DNA of 64,000 nucleotides. Origin: Terriglobia bacterium. Its GTDB lineage: Bacteria > Acidobacteriota > Terriglobia > Acidiferrales > UBA7541. The translations under genes and the position numbers were made by a program. The DNA lies in NCBI GenBank assembly GCA_963695545.1, contig OY968796.1, positions 512,001 through 576,000 of the forward strand. Reading direction: 5' to 3'. Of this stretch, positions 3,646 through 45,220 are shown in pieces (position 1 is the stretch's first letter; each line of letters begins with the position of its first letter). Below the pieces are notes generated by a model. It ran no database searches, was not told the origin of the DNA, and saw only the letters and a list, made by a program, of their open reading frames with translations.

Positions 3646-4060
3646 ATTCGAAAGAATTCCCACAGCCTATTCGAATAACCCACACGTTATTGTTGACATA
3701 AGCGGCATAGACATGCTATCGTTGTACATGAATTTCAGGGGCCCACATTCGCCCTCGTTTTTCCCACCGGCATCCCCAGAGAAACTCGCGCGCACGAATT
3801 TTCGATGTGCACTGCCCGAGCCTCTCTCCGCCCGTCGTGCATGGCCTTCCCACCATAATCGGATCGTTGCGACCGATGCGCATTCACTGCTGCCAAACCC
3901 CCTCTCCAAACCTTTTATTTTCAGCGAATTAAAAAAGAGTGCGCATCTCGCTCATAATAAACATCTTTATCACCTTTTCTTTTCACACTCATCCGCACTC
4001 TTTCGCCGCAAGTCCTGTATTTGCCGCACTTACGCAAAACATACCCGGGGTGTATATACT
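3646..4060 (+). repeat. Dispersed promoter/leader/repeat element, copy A
   Basis: TTCGAA 3647 and 3670; TTGACA 3693-3698, N18, TATCGT 3717-3722, N5, ATG 3728; stem AAAGAGTGCG 3934-3943 / CGCACTCTTT 3994-4003; AAGT-N14-ACTT 4010-4031; CCCGGGGTGTATATA end. A 24-bp block is identical to 43218-43241. Confidence 0.85.
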
Positions 4061-8393: not shown

Positions 8394-8481
8394 TGGTGCC
8401 CGGGGTGGGGGTCGAACCCACACGACGCGTTAGCGTCAGGGGATTTTAAGTCCCCCGCGTATGCCATTCCGCCACCCGGGC
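8394..8481 (-). tRNA. tRNA-Leu, anticodon TAA
   Basis: GCCCGGGTGGCGGAATGGCATACGCG-GGGGA-CTTAAAA-TCCCC-long variable arm-GTGGGTTCGACCCCCAC-CCCGGGC-ACCA; acceptor stem, T loop and encoded CCA present. Confidence 0.97.
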
Positions 8482-11513: not shown

Positions 11514-11810
11514 TCACCACACCTTCCGAAGATTCCGAAGTCCCTCGAGATAATCGTCCGTTTCCAACCTGTTCGTAACTCCAAATTCCGTCAGAATCGT
11601 CATCATCTGCCCGACAGGCAGCCCTGCCAAATCAGCCGCTTTCCCCAGCGACGCTTCGCCCGCTTTATATCGTTCCACCGCCAGCAGCATTCTTCCCCGA
11701 GTGACCAGGTCGCGCACCGCTTTCGACAAGTCGCTCCGTTCTTCCTTGCTGATCTCGCTCAAAAACTCGTAATTGTCCTGATCCATTCGGATGCTCATCG
11801 TTTTACTCAT
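11514..11810 (-). CDS. UPF0175-like antitoxin with N-terminal RHH-like segment
   Basis: MSKTMSIRMD...SKAVRDL, then YKAGEASLGKAADLAGL; 4-nt overlap with the PIN gene. Confidence 0.75.
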   Translation of the reverse strand: MSKTMSIRMDQDNYEFLSEISKEERSDLSKAVRDLVTRGRMLLAVERYKAGEASLGKAADLAGLPVGQMMTILTEFGVTNRLETDDYLEGLRNLRKVW

Positions 11811-12310
11811 GGATTCGCCTCCAACCTGACCTTCGCATCTTCAATTATGGAAGCCTTGTAACGCCCGTATCTTGCCAGCACCGCCAGTTTGGCCATCGCA
11901 CTCTCAGGGCCCAATAGTCCCTTCTCTCTGCTCCGAATCAGAATGCCTATCGCGGTCGTGAACGCAATTCTCACAACCTTGCACGCATTGATTCCATTCT
12001 TGTCATCAACGGCCAGGAGTTGGGCCCTCTCATGGAGCGCAACTGCGATTGCCTCGGCCTCACCCTTGCCGAGGCCGAAATCCGCCTGCAACTTACGGAC
12101 CAGCCTCCGATCCTTCACAGCCACCACTCTGATTCTTGACTCATCCAAAGCCTTCCGAATTACCAATCCATCCAACGTTTTCTTCGACCCGCAACACTCC
12201 CGCTCCACTTCGGCTGGAATAACAAACCCGAGTTTGCCGTCCGCCAGGAACAGGTCGAGCAACTCGGCCTTCGCTGTCAGAATCAGCGTAGATGCGTCGA
12301 GAACAATCAT
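11807..12310 (-). CDS. PIN-domain (DUF3368-like) toxin
   Basis: MIVLDASTLI, IPAEVERE, LGKGEAEAIA, LAVDD acidic PIN motifs. Confidence 0.85.
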   Translation of the reverse strand: MIVLDASTLILTAKAELLDLFLADGKLGFVIPAEVERECCGSKKTLDGLVIRKALDESRIRVVAVKDRRLVRKLQADFGLGKGEAEAIAVALHERAQLLAVDDKNGINACKVVRIAFTTAIGILIRSREKGLLGPESAMAKLAVLARYGRYKASIIEDAKVRLEANP

Positions 12311-12321
12311 TATTACACAAT

Positions 12322-12343
12322 ATGACGGACGTCATTATAACAC
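12322..12343 (-). promoter_or_regulatory. Extended -10 promoter with adjacent inverted repeat for the PIN TA operon
   Basis: Minus-strand TG-T-TATAAT (12339-12334) overlapping ATGAC-GGAC-GTCAT (12322-12335). Confidence 0.55.
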
Positions 12344-12408
12344 AGAAACGCTGGGCGCGATGCATCTCGTGAAGCCGTCGCACCCGCGGGCCACCATGCG
12401 CGCTCCGT

Positions 12409-12730
12409 TTCGAATGGCGATCCACAGGAAACGTATTCGAACTGTGGATTTCTGTTCGAATGGCTTAATAATTATATTGACAGTGTAGTACTCTACGTGC
12501 TATGCTCCCGCATGACCATCGAACGGCACTTCCCGCCCGCAGATTCCTCGGTGAAGGACGGCCGATTCGCGCTACGCCGCGCCGGTCTTTTTCACGTCTC
12601 GCCCCGCAACCCTTCCAGAATCAACACTTCTGAAAAATCGCGTTTTAACCCCAGTAGAATCAACACTTCTGGCGCAAAGGACTTAAAGTTCAATCATTTC
12701 AACACTTCTGAAAAACACCCCGGGGGTAGG
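12409..12730 (+). repeat. Dispersed promoter/leader/repeat element, copy B, with three 39-bp units
   Basis: TTCGAA 12409, 12436, 12455; TTGACA 12477-12482, N18, TATGCT 12501-12506, N5, ATG 12512; TCAACACTTCTG at 12621, 12660, 12699; CCCCGGGGGT end. Confidence 0.85.
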
Positions 12731-12781
12731 GGGGTGCGCCCTCCCCGACGAATCGATTTTTTGAATGAAAGGAGCCTATGA
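12512..12781 (+). CDS. Putative leaderless leader ORF in element copy B (89 aa, NPSRINTS repeats)
   Basis: Open through the 13-codon repeats; its stop overlaps the next ATG (ATGA 12778-12781). Confidence 0.35.
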   Translation: MTIERHFPPADSSVKDGRFALRRAGLFHVSPRNPSRINTSEKSRFNPSRINTSGAKDLKFNHFNTSEKHPGGRGVRPPRRIDFLNERSL

Positions 12782-13278
12782 ACATGAAAACCAAGACCGC
12801 ACGGAAATCAGCAAGCCGCAACATCGCAAGGAACCCGCAGAAGCTCGCCGAAAGCGCCATGTCCGACGCGCGCTGTAAATTCAAGTTCGCCGACGCGCGC
12901 TCCTGCGGCATACCACGCTGGAAAGGCCATGCCTCTTACTGCCTCTTCCACGCCCGCCAGGAACAGCAGCTTCTCGATGCCGATCGCGTCGGCACGGAAC
13001 TCGCCAGTCTCTCCGGCGAATTTCGCACAACCACCGATCTCAATCACGCCCTCGGCAAACTTTTCGCCGCCGTCGCCCAGAATCGTATTCCTCCGCGCAA
13101 CGCCGCCGTGATCGCCTACATCGGTCAACTCCTGATGCAAAGCCTCTCTGGCGTAGAGCGAGAGATCAAACACGCCGACGGCTACGAAGCCTGGGACGAC
13201 ACCATCCGCCGCACTCTCGACGCTGAAGAAAACGAGGAGGAAGAAGAGGACGACGACGAGGCGGGTGATGGCAAGTAA
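12778..13278 (+). CDS. Hypothetical protein with C-x9-C-x11-C-x2-H zinc-finger-like motif and acidic tail
   Basis: CKFKFADARSCGIPRWKGHASYCLFH; basic N-terminus; EEEEEDDDE C-terminus; AAAGGAG SD. Confidence 0.8.
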   Translation: MNMKTKTARKSASRNIARNPQKLAESAMSDARCKFKFADARSCGIPRWKGHASYCLFHARQEQQLLDADRVGTELASLSGEFRTTTDLNHALGKLFAAVAQNRIPPRNAAVIAYIGQLLMQSLSGVEREIKHADGYEAWDDTIRRTLDAEENEEEEEDDDEAGDGK

Positions 13279-13383
13279 ACCATTGCGCCCACGCCGAGCC
13301 GCCCTAACGAAGCAACGATTACCCGCGAGAGCGCGTAGTATATTGTCTCGCCGTCGCAGTCAGTGCCGGAGGACGCAAACTAG

Positions 13384-14460
13384 ATGAGCGCGCAGACGAA
13401 GAAGACTTACAAGATTGCGGTGATCGCGGGCGATGGCATTGGCCTCGAAGTCGTGCCGGAAGGCATTCGCGTTCTCGAGGCCTCCGCACGGCGCTTCGGC
13501 TTTTCGCTTGCCTGGCACAATTTTGATTGGAGCTGCGAAAGGTTCGTCGCCACCGGTCTGATGATGCCCGCCGACGCGCTCGATCAGTTGCGCGCGTTCG
13601 ACGCGATTTTTCTCGGCGCTGTCGGGCATCCGCGCGTGCCGGATCACGTTTCGCTTTGGGGACTTCTGATTCCGATTCGCCGCGCGTTTCGGCAGTACGT
13701 CAATCTGCGACCCGTGCGCCTATTCCCCGGCGTCGAATCGCCGCTGAAAAATTATCCGCCGGGCCGGATCGACTTCTGCGTGGTGCGCGAAAACAACGAA
13801 GGCGAATATTCCGAAATGGGCGGCCGCATCTATCGCGACACGCCCGATGAATTCGCCATCCAGGAAACCATCTTCACGCGCCGCGGATCGGACCGCATCA
13901 TTCGCTACGCCTTCGAGCTGGCCCGCACGCGTGCGAAACATCTCACCTCCGCCACCAAATCGAACGGCATCATCCACACCATGCCCTTCTGGGACGAGCG
14001 CTTCGCCGCCGCCGCAAAAGATTTCCCCGATGTGCGCACCGACCAATTCCACATCGACATACTCGCCGCGCATTTCGTGAAGCATCCCGATTGGTTCGAT
14101 GTGGTGGTCGGCTCGAATCTTTTCGGCGACATTCTTTCCGATCTCGGTCCCGCCGTCGCCGGCTCAATCGGCATCGCCCCCTCGGCCAATCTCAATCCCG
14201 AGCGCGAATTCCCTTCCATGTTCGAGCCCGTGCACGGCTCAGCACCTGATATCGCCGGAAAAGGCATCGCCAATCCCATCGGCCAAATCTGGAGCGGCGC
14301 CATGATGCTGCGCCATCTCGGCGAACCCGCCGCCGCCGATGCCGTCGAGCGCGCGATTGAGACAGTCCTCGCCACAGGTGGCCCGAGAACTGCAGACCTC
14401 GGCGGCAAAGCAAACACAAAAGCAGTAGGGGAGGCCATCGCCGCCGAAACTTCGCGCTAA
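13384..14460 (+). CDS. Tartrate dehydrogenase / D-malate dehydrogenase (decarboxylating)
   Basis: IAGDGIGLEV, VPDHVSLWGLL, NLFGDILSDL, SMFEPVHGSAPDIAG. Confidence 0.92.
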   Translation: MSAQTKKTYKIAVIAGDGIGLEVVPEGIRVLEASARRFGFSLAWHNFDWSCERFVATGLMMPADALDQLRAFDAIFLGAVGHPRVPDHVSLWGLLIPIRRAFRQYVNLRPVRLFPGVESPLKNYPPGRIDFCVVRENNEGEYSEMGGRIYRDTPDEFAIQETIFTRRGSDRIIRYAFELARTRAKHLTSATKSNGIIHTMPFWDERFAAAAKDFPDVRTDQFHIDILAAHFVKHPDWFDVVVGSNLFGDILSDLGPAVAGSIGIAPSANLNPEREFPSMFEPVHGSAPDIAGKGIANPIGQIWSGAMMLRHLGEPAAADAVERAIETVLATGGPRTADLGGKANTKAVGEAIAAETSR

Positions 14461-14464
14461 TACT

Positions 14465-16642
14465 CTAAGGAAGGGAAACCCCGAATTGACCGCGCAATCG
14501 AATGTCGCGCGAAGAAGCGCCGACCATCACATGAATCGTTCCCGGCAAAATCGTCCAGGCGTGCGTCGCGACATCCCAATACGACACCGCGCGGGCATCA
14601 AGTGTGAATTGAACATGCGCCGTCTTCCCCGGATCGAGCGCCACTTTCTGGAAGCCCTCAAGTTGTAGCGGCGGTTCCGGAACAGCGGAACGCGAAGGCA
14701 GTCCGAGATACAGCTCCGCGACTTCAGCGCCCGCCACAGTTCCGGTATTCGTGACGTCGCATGAAACCGTCACCGTCGAATCCGTGGCGCCGCCAAATTG
14801 CGCATGATCGGGCGAGATCTCGAGGTGATCGTACGAGAACGTGGTGTAAGAGAGGCCGAAGCCGAATGGAAACAACGGCTCGACCTTGTGCTCGTCGTAA
14901 TAGCGATAGCCGACGAATACGCCTTCGCTGTAATGCGCCTGGCGATCGACGCCGGGCCATTGTTCGGGCGTGTGCGCTGGAGCGTCTTCCACGCGCTTCG
15001 GGAACGTGATCGGCAGCTTGCCCGATGGATCGATGTCGCCGAAGAGCACGGCCGCAACGGCGTTGCCGTCCTCTTCGCCGGGATACCACGCCTCGAGCAG
15101 CGCCGGCACCTGATCGAGCCACGGCATCAGGATCGCGGAGCCGGTCTTGAGCACCACGACGGTGTGCGGATTTGCGGCGGCCACGGCGGCGACGAGAGCG
15201 TCCTGATTGCCTTCGAGCGTCAGCAGATGGTCTTTGCCCTCGGTCGCGTGGTCGCCCACCATCACGATGGCCACGTCGGCCGAGCGCGCAAGATCGGCGG
15301 CCTTGGCAGGATCGCTGCCGTCGGCGTAGGTGACGCTCACGCCGGTTCCAACGCGGCCCTGAATGCCGTCAACGGGTTTGACGCTATAGAGCGCGACGAC
15401 GTGGGAGCTGCCGCCACCGCCGGTGTTCGCCTCCCCCGCATACGGCCCGATCACCGCGATCGATTTCAAGGCCGAAGCGCGCAGCGGCAGCAGCTGCCCG
15501 GAATTTTTCAGCAACACCATGCCCGCTTCTGCGATGCCGCGCGCGGCCGCGCCGTCTTTCTGCGCCGGAATCGCTTGCGGCGCCGGCGGATGATCGAACA
15601 GGCCGAAGCGCATCAGCGTGCTGAAGCGGCGAACGAGCATCTGGTCAAGCGTGGCCTCGGGCACTTCGCCAGACTGCACGGCGGCTTTGAGAGGATCACC
15701 GAAGTAAAGGCCGGTTGGCCACTCCATGTCGAGGCCGGCCGTGACCGCCGGCACGATGCTGTGCGTGGCCCCGAAATCGGAGATCACGAAGCCCTGGAAA
15801 CCCCAATCGCCGCGCAGAATCTGCGCGAGCAGCGTGGGGTTCTCGCACGCGAACACATTGTTCACGCGGGGATACGCGCACATCACGGAGGCGGCGTGCC
15901 CCTCTTTGATCGAAGCCTCGAACGCCGGCAAATAAATTTCGCGCAGTGTGCGCTCGTCGACGATCTCGTTCACCACGAAACGATCGGTCTCCTGATTGTT
16001 GGCGTCGAAGTGCTTTACGTTGGCCAGAATTCCCTGGCTCTGAATTCCGGTGATATTGGCAACCGCGAGGCGCGCCGTGAGAAACGGATCTTCGCCGTAT
16101 GCTTCAAACGTGCGGCCATTCTGCGGGAGGCGGGCGATGTTCACGTCCGGTGCTTCGAGCAGACTGTTGCCGATATCTTTGGCTTCCGCGCCGGCGATCT
16201 CGCCATAGCGCTGCGCGAGATTCACGTCCCAGGTGGCCGCGAGCGCGATCGGCGAAGGCAGCGCCGTGGCCGGAACTTGCTTGCCCGCGCCGCCGGGTCC
16301 CGCGCCGGCGGGACCATTGGTGATGTGGAAGTCGGGGATGCCGAGGTGCGGGATGCCGGGCACCATGCGGAACTGCGTGTCGTTATGCACTCCATGAACT
16401 TGAGAAATTTTCTCGTCGAGCGTCATTTGCGCAACGAGAGCTTTGGCGCGCGCGTCGGGATCCTGCTGCGAGGTGGCCGGAATGGCGACGATGAAAGCGG
16501 CCGCGGCGGCGAGAAGCATCAACGCGCGGCGAATTGAGACGCGGCGCGCCGCGCGAAGATCATGCGCGGGCCCACGGCTTCGCCAGCCGGCGATCGGGGC
16601 CGTGCTGCTGCGCGCTTCGCGGAATCGGATTCGCATGATCAC
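14465..16642 (-). CDS. Secreted GH3 beta-glucosidase with Fn3-like C-terminus
   Basis: MTLDEKI, GRTFEAYGEDP, VKHF, GFVISDF, YSEGVFVGYRYY. Start approximate. Confidence 0.9.
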   Translation of the reverse strand: MIMRIRFREARSSTAPIAGWRSRGPAHDLRAARRVSIRRALMLLAAAAAFIVAIPATSQQDPDARAKALVAQMTLDEKISQVHGVHNDTQFRMVPGIPHLGIPDFHITNGPAGAGPGGAGKQVPATALPSPIALAATWDVNLAQRYGEIAGAEAKDIGNSLLEAPDVNIARLPQNGRTFEAYGEDPFLTARLAVANITGIQSQGILANVKHFDANNQETDRFVVNEIVDERTLREIYLPAFEASIKEGHAASVMCAYPRVNNVFACENPTLLAQILRGDWGFQGFVISDFGATHSIVPAVTAGLDMEWPTGLYFGDPLKAAVQSGEVPEATLDQMLVRRFSTLMRFGLFDHPPAPQAIPAQKDGAAARGIAEAGMVLLKNSGQLLPLRASALKSIAVIGPYAGEANTGGGGSSHVVALYSVKPVDGIQGRVGTGVSVTYADGSDPAKAADLARSADVAIVMVGDHATEGKDHLLTLEGNQDALVAAVAAANPHTVVVLKTGSAILMPWLDQVPALLEAWYPGEEDGNAVAAVLFGDIDPSGKLPITFPKRVEDAPAHTPEQWPGVDRQAHYSEGVFVGYRYYDEHKVEPLFPFGFGLSYTTFSYDHLEISPDHAQFGGATDSTVTVSCDVTNTGTVAGAEVAELYLGLPSRSAVPEPPLQLEGFQKVALDPGKTAHVQFTLDARAVSYWDVATHAWTILPGTIHVMVGASSRDIRLRGQFGVSLP

Positions 16643-16677
16643 TCCTCAAGAAACGGAGACGGCGCGCTGCTTGCGTT

Positions 16678-17457
16678 TTATGTCGAACGATTGAGACGCG
16701 ACGAAATATCTTTGGCGGCGCTTTTCACCGAGGCGGCGAACGACGGGATTTTGTCGCGGCTGATGCGTGTGATCGGTCCAGAGACACTGAGGGCCGCCAC
16801 AATTTTGCCAGAGTCGTCCAGAATCGGAGCGGCCACGCAGCGCGCGCCGAGAACGGCTTCTTGATCGTCGAGCGCGAAGCCCTGGCGGAAGATCTTCGCG
16901 AGTTCTTTGCGCAGCCGGGCGGCGTCGGGAATGGTGTGGTTGGTCACGCGCTCGAAGCTCAGAGAGGCGAACATCTCCTCGCGTTGCTCGAGCGGAAGAA
17001 ACGCAAGCAGCGCCTTGCCCAGGCCGGTGCAATAGAGCGCGCGGCGCATGCCAACCTGCGAGCCCATGCGAAACATGTGGCCGCTTTCGATGACGTCGAG
17101 ATAGAGAATTTCGTGGCCGTCGATCACCGCGAGGTTGACGGTTTCCTTGGTGGTGCGCCACACCTTTTGCAAAGCTGGGCGGCTGACTTTGCGAAGCGTG
17201 GCGTGGAAGGAAATGCCGGCGCCGAGATGCGCCAAGCGCGGGCCGATGACGTAGGCTCCGCTATCGTCGCGAAACAAGTAGCCGGCGCCTTCAAGGTGGG
17301 CCAGAAAACGATAGGCGGTGCTCTTGTGAATGCTGGTCTGCTGGGCGATCTGGCGCAACTGGAGGCCGGTGGGCGAGCTATCGAGAGCTTCGAGAATACG
17401 AAGCACCTTGCCCACAACACCAACCGGGGCGGCTTTGGACTGTCGAGCTCGAATCAT
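16678..17457 (-). CDS. IclR-family transcriptional regulator
   Basis: N-terminal HTH (KSTAYRFL), ETVNLAV, YCTGLGKALLA, GARCVAAPI. Confidence 0.9.
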   Translation of the reverse strand: MIRARQSKAAPVGVVGKVLRILEALDSSPTGLQLRQIAQQTSIHKSTAYRFLAHLEGAGYLFRDDSGAYVIGPRLAHLGAGISFHATLRKVSRPALQKVWRTTKETVNLAVIDGHEILYLDVIESGHMFRMGSQVGMRRALYCTGLGKALLAFLPLEQREEMFASLSFERVTNHTIPDAARLRKELAKIFRQGFALDDQEAVLGARCVAAPILDDSGKIVAALSVSGPITRISRDKIPSFAASVKSAAKDISSRLNRST

Positions 17458-18142
17458 GGCGTGGACGGCGGATCGTGGAATTGGCTCAAAAAGGGGAAGC
17501 AGACCCGCGAAGCTCGGATCCGGAAGCAGCAATCCGCCGGAGGTTCCTTTCTAGACCGCGGTGCGCGGCATTTTTAGAAACTAAAATGCAAGTTTTCAGT
17601 TCTAAATCGAGAGCGCGCGGCGCGCACCGCGACACTGTTTTATATGTTGAACCGGGGGGAAGCAAGGGAAATCTGATCGGCCGGAGGGCGCGGGCAGCGC
17701 GTCCGCGGACGGTCTATTTCAGGATCCGAAACGGTGATTCTTTACGTTGAATCTTGCGGAAATTCTTGATACAAGCCTCTTGCGTGAACCGCGATCACGC
17801 CGCGCCGCAAGCCACCGGCGACATTCGGCAGCCGGGCACGGCGGCGAATTTGGCTTTGGAGAGCTTGCAGCACCCCAACCACGGTCCGTCCGCGAGAATG
17901 CGCCTCACGGCCACCCCTCATGGACGCCCTGGGAAACCTGCAAGGACCGCCGGACGGGCAGCGCCGAACCTCCTAGCGGCGCTGCCTTCTCGGTGGGGCG
18001 GCCGAGGCGGGACAATGATTGCGAAGTTCGCGCGCACGCCGGCAGGCGAATCCGATACAATCTGCGGCGCTCAGGTGACGGGCGCAGCAACGTGAAGGAC
18101 GTACGCGCGGGGCTGCGGGTTCGCTCGGGCGCGTTGAGTTAG

Positions 18143-44111: not shown

Positions 44112-45220
44112 GTGAGCAACTGCCGGAGCTATCACAACCGACGAGCACCAGCCCCGTAGGGGCGGCACATTTTAGCCTAGGGCGGAAGCCCTGGGTACGC
44201 CGCAAGAAATCGCGAAAGCCCCGTAGGGGCGACACAAAAGCGACGCAAACTACGCCGATCGCGCTTCAAGAAAATCGCTGGGCCCGTCGATTGATCCTCC
44301 CTCTCATCGCCTTGCTCTTCGCCGCGACCTCCGCATCCGCGCAAACCGCGCCGCCCGCCGGCGCCGACGTCGCCGCCACTCTCACCGGCGCGCTCTCCGC
44401 CGCATGCAAAGAAGACGACGCCGCATTCGCGCCGTTTCTCACTTCCGAAAATTCCACCGCGTTTCAAAATCTCGTCGGTCCGCAACGCATCGCGTTCATG
44501 AAACGTATCGTTCAGCTCGACGACGCCGGACATCCCTTGATTTCAACCAGCGATGACGGTCTGACGGTACTGCGCTGCGAAACTCCCGCGGTCACTACCG
44601 AAATGCGCTTTGGCCCAACGAAAGCCAGCGACAACTTGGCCTTCATCGCCGTGACTGTGCCCAGTCCAGGCGAAGATCCGCGCACGATTCGTTTCGGCCT
44701 GGTGCGCGAGCAAGGCCAATGGAAACTCCTCTCGCTTGGTCTTGTGCTGCTCGACGTGCAGGCGCTCTCCGACGAATGGGCCCACGCCGATATCGAATCG
44801 ATGGAAAACGACGCGGTCGATAATCTGCGCCAAATCGCAACCGCGCTTGACGCCTACCGCACCGCATTCGGCCAGTTGCCGGACTCGCTCGCACAGCTCG
44901 GCCCCGCGCCGCCCGGCGGAATTTCTCCGGATATGGCCAGCCTCGTTGACGCCGATCTTGCCTCCGGCGAAACGGGTGGCTACAAATTCCGCTACCGCAT
45001 CGTGCCATCCGCCAGCGCCACCACACCCGAGGATCAGAACAAACTCGCCGGCTACGAAATCGCCGCCACTCCGATCGCCTACGGCAAAACCGCCAAGCGC
45101 TCCTTCTTCCTCGATTCCTCCGGCGCCCTGCGCGGCGCCGATAAGAAAGGCGAAGTCGCCGGCCCCGAAGATCCGCGCATCGACGCCGGCACGGACACGC
45201 AATCGCCGCCGCAGCCCTGA
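44108..45220 (+). CDS. Secreted protein with pilin-like C-terminal region
   Basis: Signal segment LILPLIALLFAATSASA-Q; AVDNLRQIATA...LASGETGGYKF...YGKTAKRSFFLDSSG; ATGA coupling to the upstream gene. Start uncertain. Confidence 0.7.
   Translation: MSEQLPELSQPTSTSPVGAAHFSLGRKPWVRRKKSRKPRRGDTKATQTTPIALQENRWARRLILPLIALLFAATSASAQTAPPAGADVAATLTGALSAACKEDDAAFAPFLTSENSTAFQNLVGPQRIAFMKRIVQLDDAGHPLISTSDDGLTVLRCETPAVTTEMRFGPTKASDNLAFIAVTVPSPGEDPRTIRFGLVREQGQWKLLSLGLVLLDVQALSDEWAHADIESMENDAVDNLRQIATALDAYRTAFGQLPDSLAQLGPAPPGGISPDMASLVDADLASGETGGYKFRYRIVPSASATTPEDQNKLAGYEIAATPIAYGKTAKRSFFLDSSGALRGADKKGEVAGPEDPRIDAGTDTQSPPQP
44150..44236. repeat. REP-like palindromic element
   Basis: AGCCCCGTAGGGGCG(G/A)CACA at 44150 and 44217 flanking hairpin CCTAGGGC-GGAA-GCCCTGGG. 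Confidence 0.8.

Follow-up and report, generated by a model that had tools for sequence, protein, structure and literature searches.

A dispersed promoter and repeat cassette associated with GC-skew switches in an acidobacterial chromosome

Introduction

A bacterial chromosome would normally be expected to have a single skew switch of the origin type. Iteron origins and oriC bring together direct repeats, DnaA-box-like and IHF-like motifs, and a promoter that faces the start zone. In phage cos and pac regions (lambda cosN-cosB, P22 pac) and in host pseudo-pac sites, several spaced protein sites with IHF-like motifs adjoin an end motif rich in G, and a small gene of the TerS kind is present. 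Type III toxin-antitoxin, CRISPR and TIGR arrays are built from a promoter followed by short units of approximately 36-39 nt. Gene transfer agents (GTAs) such as RcGTA and DsGTA maintain a conserved single-copy cluster of head and terminase genes with a short TerS-like gene, and the portion of PMC6854486 drawn on here places GTA small terminases upstream of terL and describes them as having no DNA-binding head. TerS C-termini bind TerL, according to passages of PMC6854486 and PMC9611059. Packaging by DsGTA has been proposed to run in both directions from preferred starts, with seven peaks and no sequence motif in the sections of PMC5786225 concerned with them, and BaGTA of Bartonella is coupled to an extra bidirectional, phage-derived start and run-off replication (PMC2697382, in part).

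The window analyzed here is a stretch of 64,000 nucleotides (G000:512001-576000) from the single-contig, 4.16 Mb genome of a Terriglobia bacterium, which we designate G000; the genomes of relatives are numbered from G001. It contains a short tandem array belonging to a cassette whose layout resembles that of cos and pac regions. In contrast to those regions, the cassette is kept by the host in approximately 105 copies outside any prophage, carries its own promoter and open frame, and is associated with a CCCH zinc finger rather than a helix-turn-helix protein. G000 and the GTAs have in common a conserved cluster of head and terminase genes, present in single copy and including a short gene that resembles TerS; unlike DsGTA, G000 has sequence-defined cassettes and separate zinc-finger genes. 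BaGTA has one origin with its own helicase genes, whereas the cassettes of G000 number in the dozens and carry no genes, and its chromosome as a whole lacks a single-origin skew. Compared with iteron origins and oriC, the cassette has no adjacent initiator, and the associated skew flip is diffuse and kilobases away. In contrast to type III toxin-antitoxin, CRISPR and TIGR arrays, each unit position has a fixed flank, the array is not followed by a cognate nuclease, and it lies inside a kept frame. A search of openly available main texts returned no account of this element and none of a sawtooth skew in Acidobacteria, and the word "skew" does not occur in the accessible part of the main text of a comparative acidobacterial-genome paper (PMC5900883).

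The cassette in the window

The array consists of three units whose 12-bp core recurs exactly at spacings of 39 and 39 bp, as the first-pass annotation had reported, and no further match with 0-1 mismatch is present in the window (Table 1). That annotation described the core as invariant and the flanks as variable. Invariance holds for the window copy and relaxes, across 60 units, to the consensus AA..C.t.taGAATcA.CAcTTC; the flanks are not free spacers, since every unit position keeps its own conserved flank across copies. The placement between a promoter and a zinc-finger gene was confirmed, and an ORF enclosing the array, which had been overlooked, was found to end in a stop that overlaps the zinc-finger start (ATGA). 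The genome has 20 loci of the same type (type A), so the array is not unique; it forms the block of repeated sites in a dispersed cassette, in which TTCGAA boxes, a strong promoter, a start codon, an open frame, the units and a G-run follow one another in fixed order.

Table 1. Features of the cassette and its surroundings, in window coordinates.
Feature	Position	Strand	Basis or detail
Upstream operator-like block with three TTCGAA boxes (12409, 12436, 12455); binder purely putative	12409..12460	+	sequence
Two DnaA-box-like CCACA motifs inside the upstream block	12420-12427 (forward), 12442-12449 (reverse)		sequence
Predicted sigma-70-type promoter: TTGACA (at 12477), 18-nt spacer with TG, TATGCT (ending 12506)	12477..12506	+	one of approximately 105 genomic copies of the module
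Predicted leaderless ORF of 89 aa that runs in frame across the array	12512..12781	+	ATG 5 nt past the -10 box
Three 39-bp units, type A, predicted protein-binding sites	12608..12724	+	cores TCAACACTTCTG at 12621, 12660, 12699
A-tract and G-run end motif AAAAACACCCCGGGGGTAGGGGGG; candidate cut or end site	12711..12734	+	
Short T-rich tail ATCGATTTTTTGAAT, common to most canonical type-A copies	12752..12766	+	alignment
CCCH zinc-finger (C33, C43, C55, H58) and helical-bundle protein, clade A; candidate unit binder	12778..13278	+	
Local GC-skew flip ahead of the cassette	14000..17000	n/a	fourfold-site and total skew

A cassette family across the chromosome

The 20 type-A loci were consolidated from 25 hits of an array profile, which included split and double hits and one weak hit. 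Nearly all carry the same upstream module of TTCGAA boxes, TTGAC, an extended -10 and a start codon, and a profile of this module returned 105 hits in the genome, with the start assigned by pattern in 100 and by hand in 5. The other copies, approximately 85 and here termed type B, have a different block with an inverted repeat and consensus-like IHF motifs. TTCGAA lies upstream of 100 of the 105 copies, and a G-run likewise terminates 100; the distance from the last core to the G-run is 23-28 bp in 52 of 60 array hits and 31 in one, with no G-run in range in seven. The motif WWHCCACA is found upstream of 41/105 copies compared with 2% of non-coding control windows, and the same CCACA boxes occur upstream of dnaA. 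The spacing between copies (mean 39 kb) is more regular than expected at random (CV 0.65 vs 0.99), and the genes downstream differ between them. Upstream flanks were replaced in 10/21 cases and downstream flanks in 1/21. Control of the cassettes by the SOS response was rejected, as no TTCGAA of the kind that would serve as a LexA operator lies within 600 bp upstream of recA or lexA.

Repeat units as DNA sites

The open frame is a regular property of the cassette. Among 78 promoters, defined without reference to a start codon, 75 have an ATG or GTG exactly 5 nt past the -10 box; 70 of these 75 starts open frames of at least 70 codons, compared with 14 in frame +2. The core is in frame with every one of the 18 type-A starts scored, across distances of 45-213 nt, and the type-A frame has no stop in 623 codons, versus 9 and 12 in the other frames. 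The peptide itself bears no mark of amino-acid-level purifying selection of the kind expected for a tandem repeat protein: in 14 canonical type-A copies pN/pS is 0.82, against 0.91 and 0.83 in the other frames, and the three codon positions are equally conserved (0.92, 0.88, 0.88). In type B, 28 copies read the block in frame 0 and 19 read it in frame 2, with the frame open to the G-run in 46/48, and some arrays of G008, G018 and G022 contain stops in frame or steps of 40 bp. Folding of the array RNA is no more stable than that of shuffled sequences (z -0.74). Because the frame is open and the peptide is not selected, the units appear to be neither a peptide repeat nor a structured RNA array; equal conservation of codon positions, frame switching in type B and the lack of an RNA fold point to units that act as DNA sites. 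The cassette thus includes a reading frame held open without selection on its product, and such frames explain one class of hypothetical proteins in these genomes as spurious. C outnumbers G in the leaders (8306 vs 4631), and rho is present in the genome; we infer that translation shields these C-rich leaders from Rho.

The first-pass annotation had offered iteron-like protein sites, recombinase sites or a small processed RNA array, and had expected a conserved period. Repeated protein-binding sites are the best-supported of the three on the sequence evidence. No recombinase gene lies beside the copies inspected, and an Rfam search of the window, which returned only a tRNA and Acido-Lenti-1, gave no match for the array. 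The period is indeed kept, at 39 or 69 in the genus and 39/40 or 49/51 in other genera, and conservation does not follow codon positions alone, as it would in a plain peptide repeat. The resemblance to an IHF site, with a spacer one base short, applies to type A; the type-B motifs are consensus-like. The exclusion of CRISPR also stands, as the unit flanks are fixed by position across the 20 loci and are not the unique, variable spacers of a guide-RNA array. A type III toxin-antitoxin array is likewise not indicated: the window has no plus-strand terminator and no Rfam match at the array, no toxin endoribonuclease follows, and downstream genes vary between copies.

GC-skew switches ahead of cassettes

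Approximately 57-80 sharp skew switches occur in G000, most of them a few kb ahead of a sequence-defined cassette. Of 57 major cumulative GC-skew minima, 41 have a copy within 6 kb that points toward the minimum and 2 have a copy pointing away; none of 59 maxima has a copy pointing toward it. In 500 circular shifts the corresponding count for minima had a mean of 8.5 (sd 2.8, maximum 37), and at a lower threshold 47/70 minima were matched against a control mean of 10.8 and maximum of 21. Skew at fourfold sites, calculated on the cassette strand from our own simple gene calls (3277 genes), is approximately -0.3 from -6 kb to 0 and approximately +0.16 at +10 kb, with a ramp spanning 0-8 kb and a zero crossing approximately 3.5-5 kb downstream. 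The pattern is alike for genes on both strands. In the window, fourfold-site skew passes from -0.39 (12001-14000) through -0.13 (14001-16000) to +0.31 (16001-18000). Upstream skew averages -0.29 for 18 type-A copies, where 2000 random sets gave an sd of 0.056 and a minimum of -0.16, and is flat at 207 other promoter-like sites. The association is not universal: upstream skew falls below -0.1 in 84 of the 105 copies, and 15 flips have no copy at all.

Skew relative to dnaA is absent from the replichores (-0.005, -0.002), and no single-origin skew is seen on the chromosome. Local skew is high, with an sd of 0.077 per 5 kb; in G016 and G022, two relatives with flat skew, the sd is 0.031-0.037. 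This difference suggests that DNA spends longer in single-stranded form than it would at ordinary forks. The pattern implies a process that is asymmetric between strands, runs in both directions and begins somewhere in the 0-8 kb ahead of each cassette. The skew has the independence from gene strand of an origin-type switch, but the switch does not lie at the element itself. Genes near minima point slightly toward them rather than away, and a search for a conserved motif at the flips found none. The possibility that flip position is set by the first opposing gene was rejected, as the zero crossing remained near 4-5 kb in all four distance classes. A type-A cassette has the only 16S rRNA gene (G000:1600784-1602321, minus strand) 4 kb behind it; this gene is 237 kb to the right of dnaA, and the single rRNA operon is head-on for an origin at dnaA.

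Conservation and turnover in relatives

For comparison with G000 we used 40 of the 43 listed modules of G003 and 20 of the 34 of G004. Of 57 modules with a downstream orthologue, 30 share both place and orientation with a G000 copy (chance 5%), and the block type is swapped at 9 of these 30 sites. A further 19 modules map to cassette-free places in G000, and 6 of the 19 point at one of the 15 copy-less flips (chance 4.7%), which suggests that skew persists after a cassette is lost. Between genera most sites are not shared, as in G018 (1/7 shared). At the locus of the 39-bp array, all that remains in G003 is the 3' end of the zinc-finger gene, and G001 and G004 have neither cassette nor gene.

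A strict promoter pattern matched 9/41 genomes, with no control matches, although it misses diverged versions in G015 and G020; near-identical promoters occur in G018. Samples of 100-320 kb from relatives contained flips in G001, G015, G017, G018, G020 and G023. In G018 and G020, a cassette stands 1-2 kb behind three of these flips; one is ahead of a diverged cassette in G015, and for several in G001, G015, G017 and G023 no cassette was found. Skew is flat in G016 and G022, the latter nonetheless with four type-A arrays in 200 kb. Named homologues belong to Candidatus Acidiferrales. A long, strict array pattern run over 301 genomes of the phylum matched G000 only and is too specific to define the range of the family; the array and zinc-finger protein were not found in viral contig or phage collections. 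The diverged cassette of G015 (G015:C1:1099560-1100110) has two tandem site blocks, each closing with a G-run, and its units resemble type A only in CACTTAC-like letters.

Zinc-finger proteins and a phage-like cluster

All four zinc-finger family genes of G000 follow a cassette. The window protein has 1332 relatives and a predicted structure with pLDDT 87.8, belongs to no Pfam or PHROG family, and has no Foldseek match at E<=0.001 in BFVD or PDB; its nearest named Atlas cluster, DUF5763 at 0.81, is a lead only. The same searches (Foldseek against BFVD and PDB, Pfam, PHROGs) gave no TerS fold or family. The family has two clades. In relatives, genes of clade A, to which the window protein belongs, neighbor type-A-like arrays and those of clade B neighbor type-B blocks, though not without exception; such a pairing can arise from adjacency alone. 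G001, G017 and G023 show flips, yet no zinc-finger match was found in them.

A single phage-like cluster (G000:3386000-3419000) encodes terL, a capsid, an endolysin, a weak match to a phage initiator and a 92-aa ORF, and is interrupted by an insertion sequence at 3400048-3401192. Its terL has over 2300 homologues, and its capsid is single-copy and 55-92% identical in 13/40 relatives; 14/41 genomes have the capsid and 15/41 have terL, which is in pieces in G001, G010, G015 and G023. Conserved, host-maintained head and packaging genes are those expected of a GTA, and the cluster may be an undescribed one. A tail motif, [VILF][WF]D[ILMV]P[RG]P, occurs at four places in the six frames of G000, namely three clade-B zinc-finger paralogs and the 92-aa ORF, and hhalign aligned the tail to this ORF at 94% over 16 columns. 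In three other genera, represented by G008, G015 and G020, weak homologues of the ORF (E 0.001-0.007) immediately precede terL, which is the small-terminase position; the G000 gene is not adjacent to terL. In G003, both the homologue of the 92-aa ORF and a zinc-finger protein read WDIPGPDP. The tail is kept in 62/79 clade-B proteins and in 0/110 of clade A, and because the window protein is of clade A, the phage link for the type-A array is indirect. G018 has cassettes, flips and clade-B genes, and neither terL nor capsid was found there. Both G016, with the cluster and no zinc finger found, and G022, with arrays and no terL found, are flat. The phage-type initiator of the cluster was rejected as a general binder, as it was not found in G017, G018, G020 or G023, all of which have flips.

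Origin of the skew and role of the cassette

Given approximately 105 copies and the location of most skew switches a few kb ahead of one, the repeats are likely to be protein-loading sites. We tentatively favor, as a possible reading, that they load a terminase-type complex of a domesticated phage, the GTA-like cluster, and that packaging of host DNA starts near each copy. The zinc-finger proteins, supplied in trans from four copies, would bind the units with bending by IHF or HU, and the tail would dock the large terminase. Translation would only keep RNA polymerase moving through a C-rich, protein-bound stretch, with protection from Rho. The cut or start point would be displaced 0-8 kb downstream, at a guess by RNA polymerase pushing from the strong promoter, and processing in both directions through long-lived single strands (transfer, recombination-primed synthesis) would leave the skew. 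The tail motif, the homologues in TerS position, the single-copy capsid, the high local skew, the flat G016 and G022, and the asymmetry of flank replacement count for packaging. Counting against it are the tailless clade A, G018 without capsid or terL, the flip genomes without a zinc finger, the lack of a TerS match and of a match in viral collections, and the position of the flip, which is centered approximately 4 kb from the G-run rather than at it, an offset that no simple pac model predicts. Extra replication origins, an alternative that we consider somewhat unlikely, are not exclusive of packaging starts, and neither reading explains the displacement of the start by itself. DnaA-box-like motifs, IHF-like sites and transcription would here license bidirectional initiation 0-8 kb downstream at 50-100 starts, by the host replisome or by phage-type run-off replication. 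The sign and shape of the skew are origin-like (C-rich behind, G-rich ahead, in genes of both strands), copies point toward minima and never toward maxima, and the lack of replichore skew, the head-on rRNA operon, the CCACA boxes common to dnaA and 41/105 copies, and the even spacing all agree with origins, which need no phage cluster and so cover G018. However, the skew amplitude exceeds that of flat relatives, genes near minima lean the wrong way, the flip itself has no motif, the cluster initiator was not found in four genomes with flips, and the shared terminase-type tail is left unexplained; dnaA, dnaB, priA and an RNase H are moreover present. Loss of RNase H as a cause of skew was rejected separately, an RNase H match being found in 24/25 genomes.

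It is improbable that the cassette is a mobile promoter element of the selfish kind, for which the zinc-finger gene would supply a dedicated factor, inserting in fixed orientation near skew flips of other cause, its units serving as end or mobilization sites. Patchy distribution of the promoter pattern, near-identical promoters in G018, loss at the array locus in G003 except for the tail of the gene, swapping of type at shared sites and the 15 flips without a copy would all suit such an element; yet the listed part of a 20-copy G018 alignment showed no terminal repeats or target duplications, no clean empty site was found, no transposase is linked, sites are kept across species as their sequence turns over, and there is no independent motif at flips. 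A role for the product, as small basic repeat peptides or processed 39-nt RNAs, is very improbable: the strongly kept start codon and open frame and genus periods that are nearly all multiples of 3 are set against a pN/pS like that of other frames, equally conserved codon positions, two reading frames in type B, in-frame stops or 40-bp steps in three genomes and the absence of a stable fold, and the skew would go unexplained.

It is close to evenly balanced whether a lineage of soil Acidobacteria abandoned replication from a single origin, or gene transfer at random, in favor of 50-100 start zones defined by cassettes, each licensed by a promoter, a ribosome-coupled run through a zinc-finger- and IHF-bound array, and a phage-derived motor, in an arrangement old enough to have produced sawtooth base composition. 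If the origin reading is true, this would be a bacterium in which DNA synthesis begins at dozens of sites, which bears on a question of long standing. If the packaging reading is true, a domesticated phage would be aimed at approximately 100 host-encoded start sites, in contrast to the random or motif-free packaging reported for GTAs. Under either, the cassette positions provide a ready map for experiment.

Insertion elements and neighboring genes

Three of the 20 type-A arrays are split by insertion elements with passenger genes (G000:343587-346846, 245290-247698 and 3686321-3688937), which are flanked by short target duplications, CTTAAAG twice and AAAAACAC once. We take these elements to be IS1595-like, and type-A arrays look like a preferred target of such insertions on the sequence of these cases. 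A cassette common to G000 and G003 has priA 1.5 kb downstream, and another has the RNase H gene 3 kb ahead of it (G000:319769 and 1146068). Directly upstream of the window cassette, at 11514-12310, two small genes face away from it, in the manner of variable upstream cargo; one is UPF0175 antitoxin-like, and the other, of 167 aa and with no Pfam match, is presumably PIN-like. The window also contains type-B copies at 3728 and 43279 (+), the second of which precedes a skew flip near 46 kb and has an Acido-Lenti-1 RNA (44150-44195, -) approximately 900 bp downstream of its start. The tRNA lies at 8397-8481 (-).
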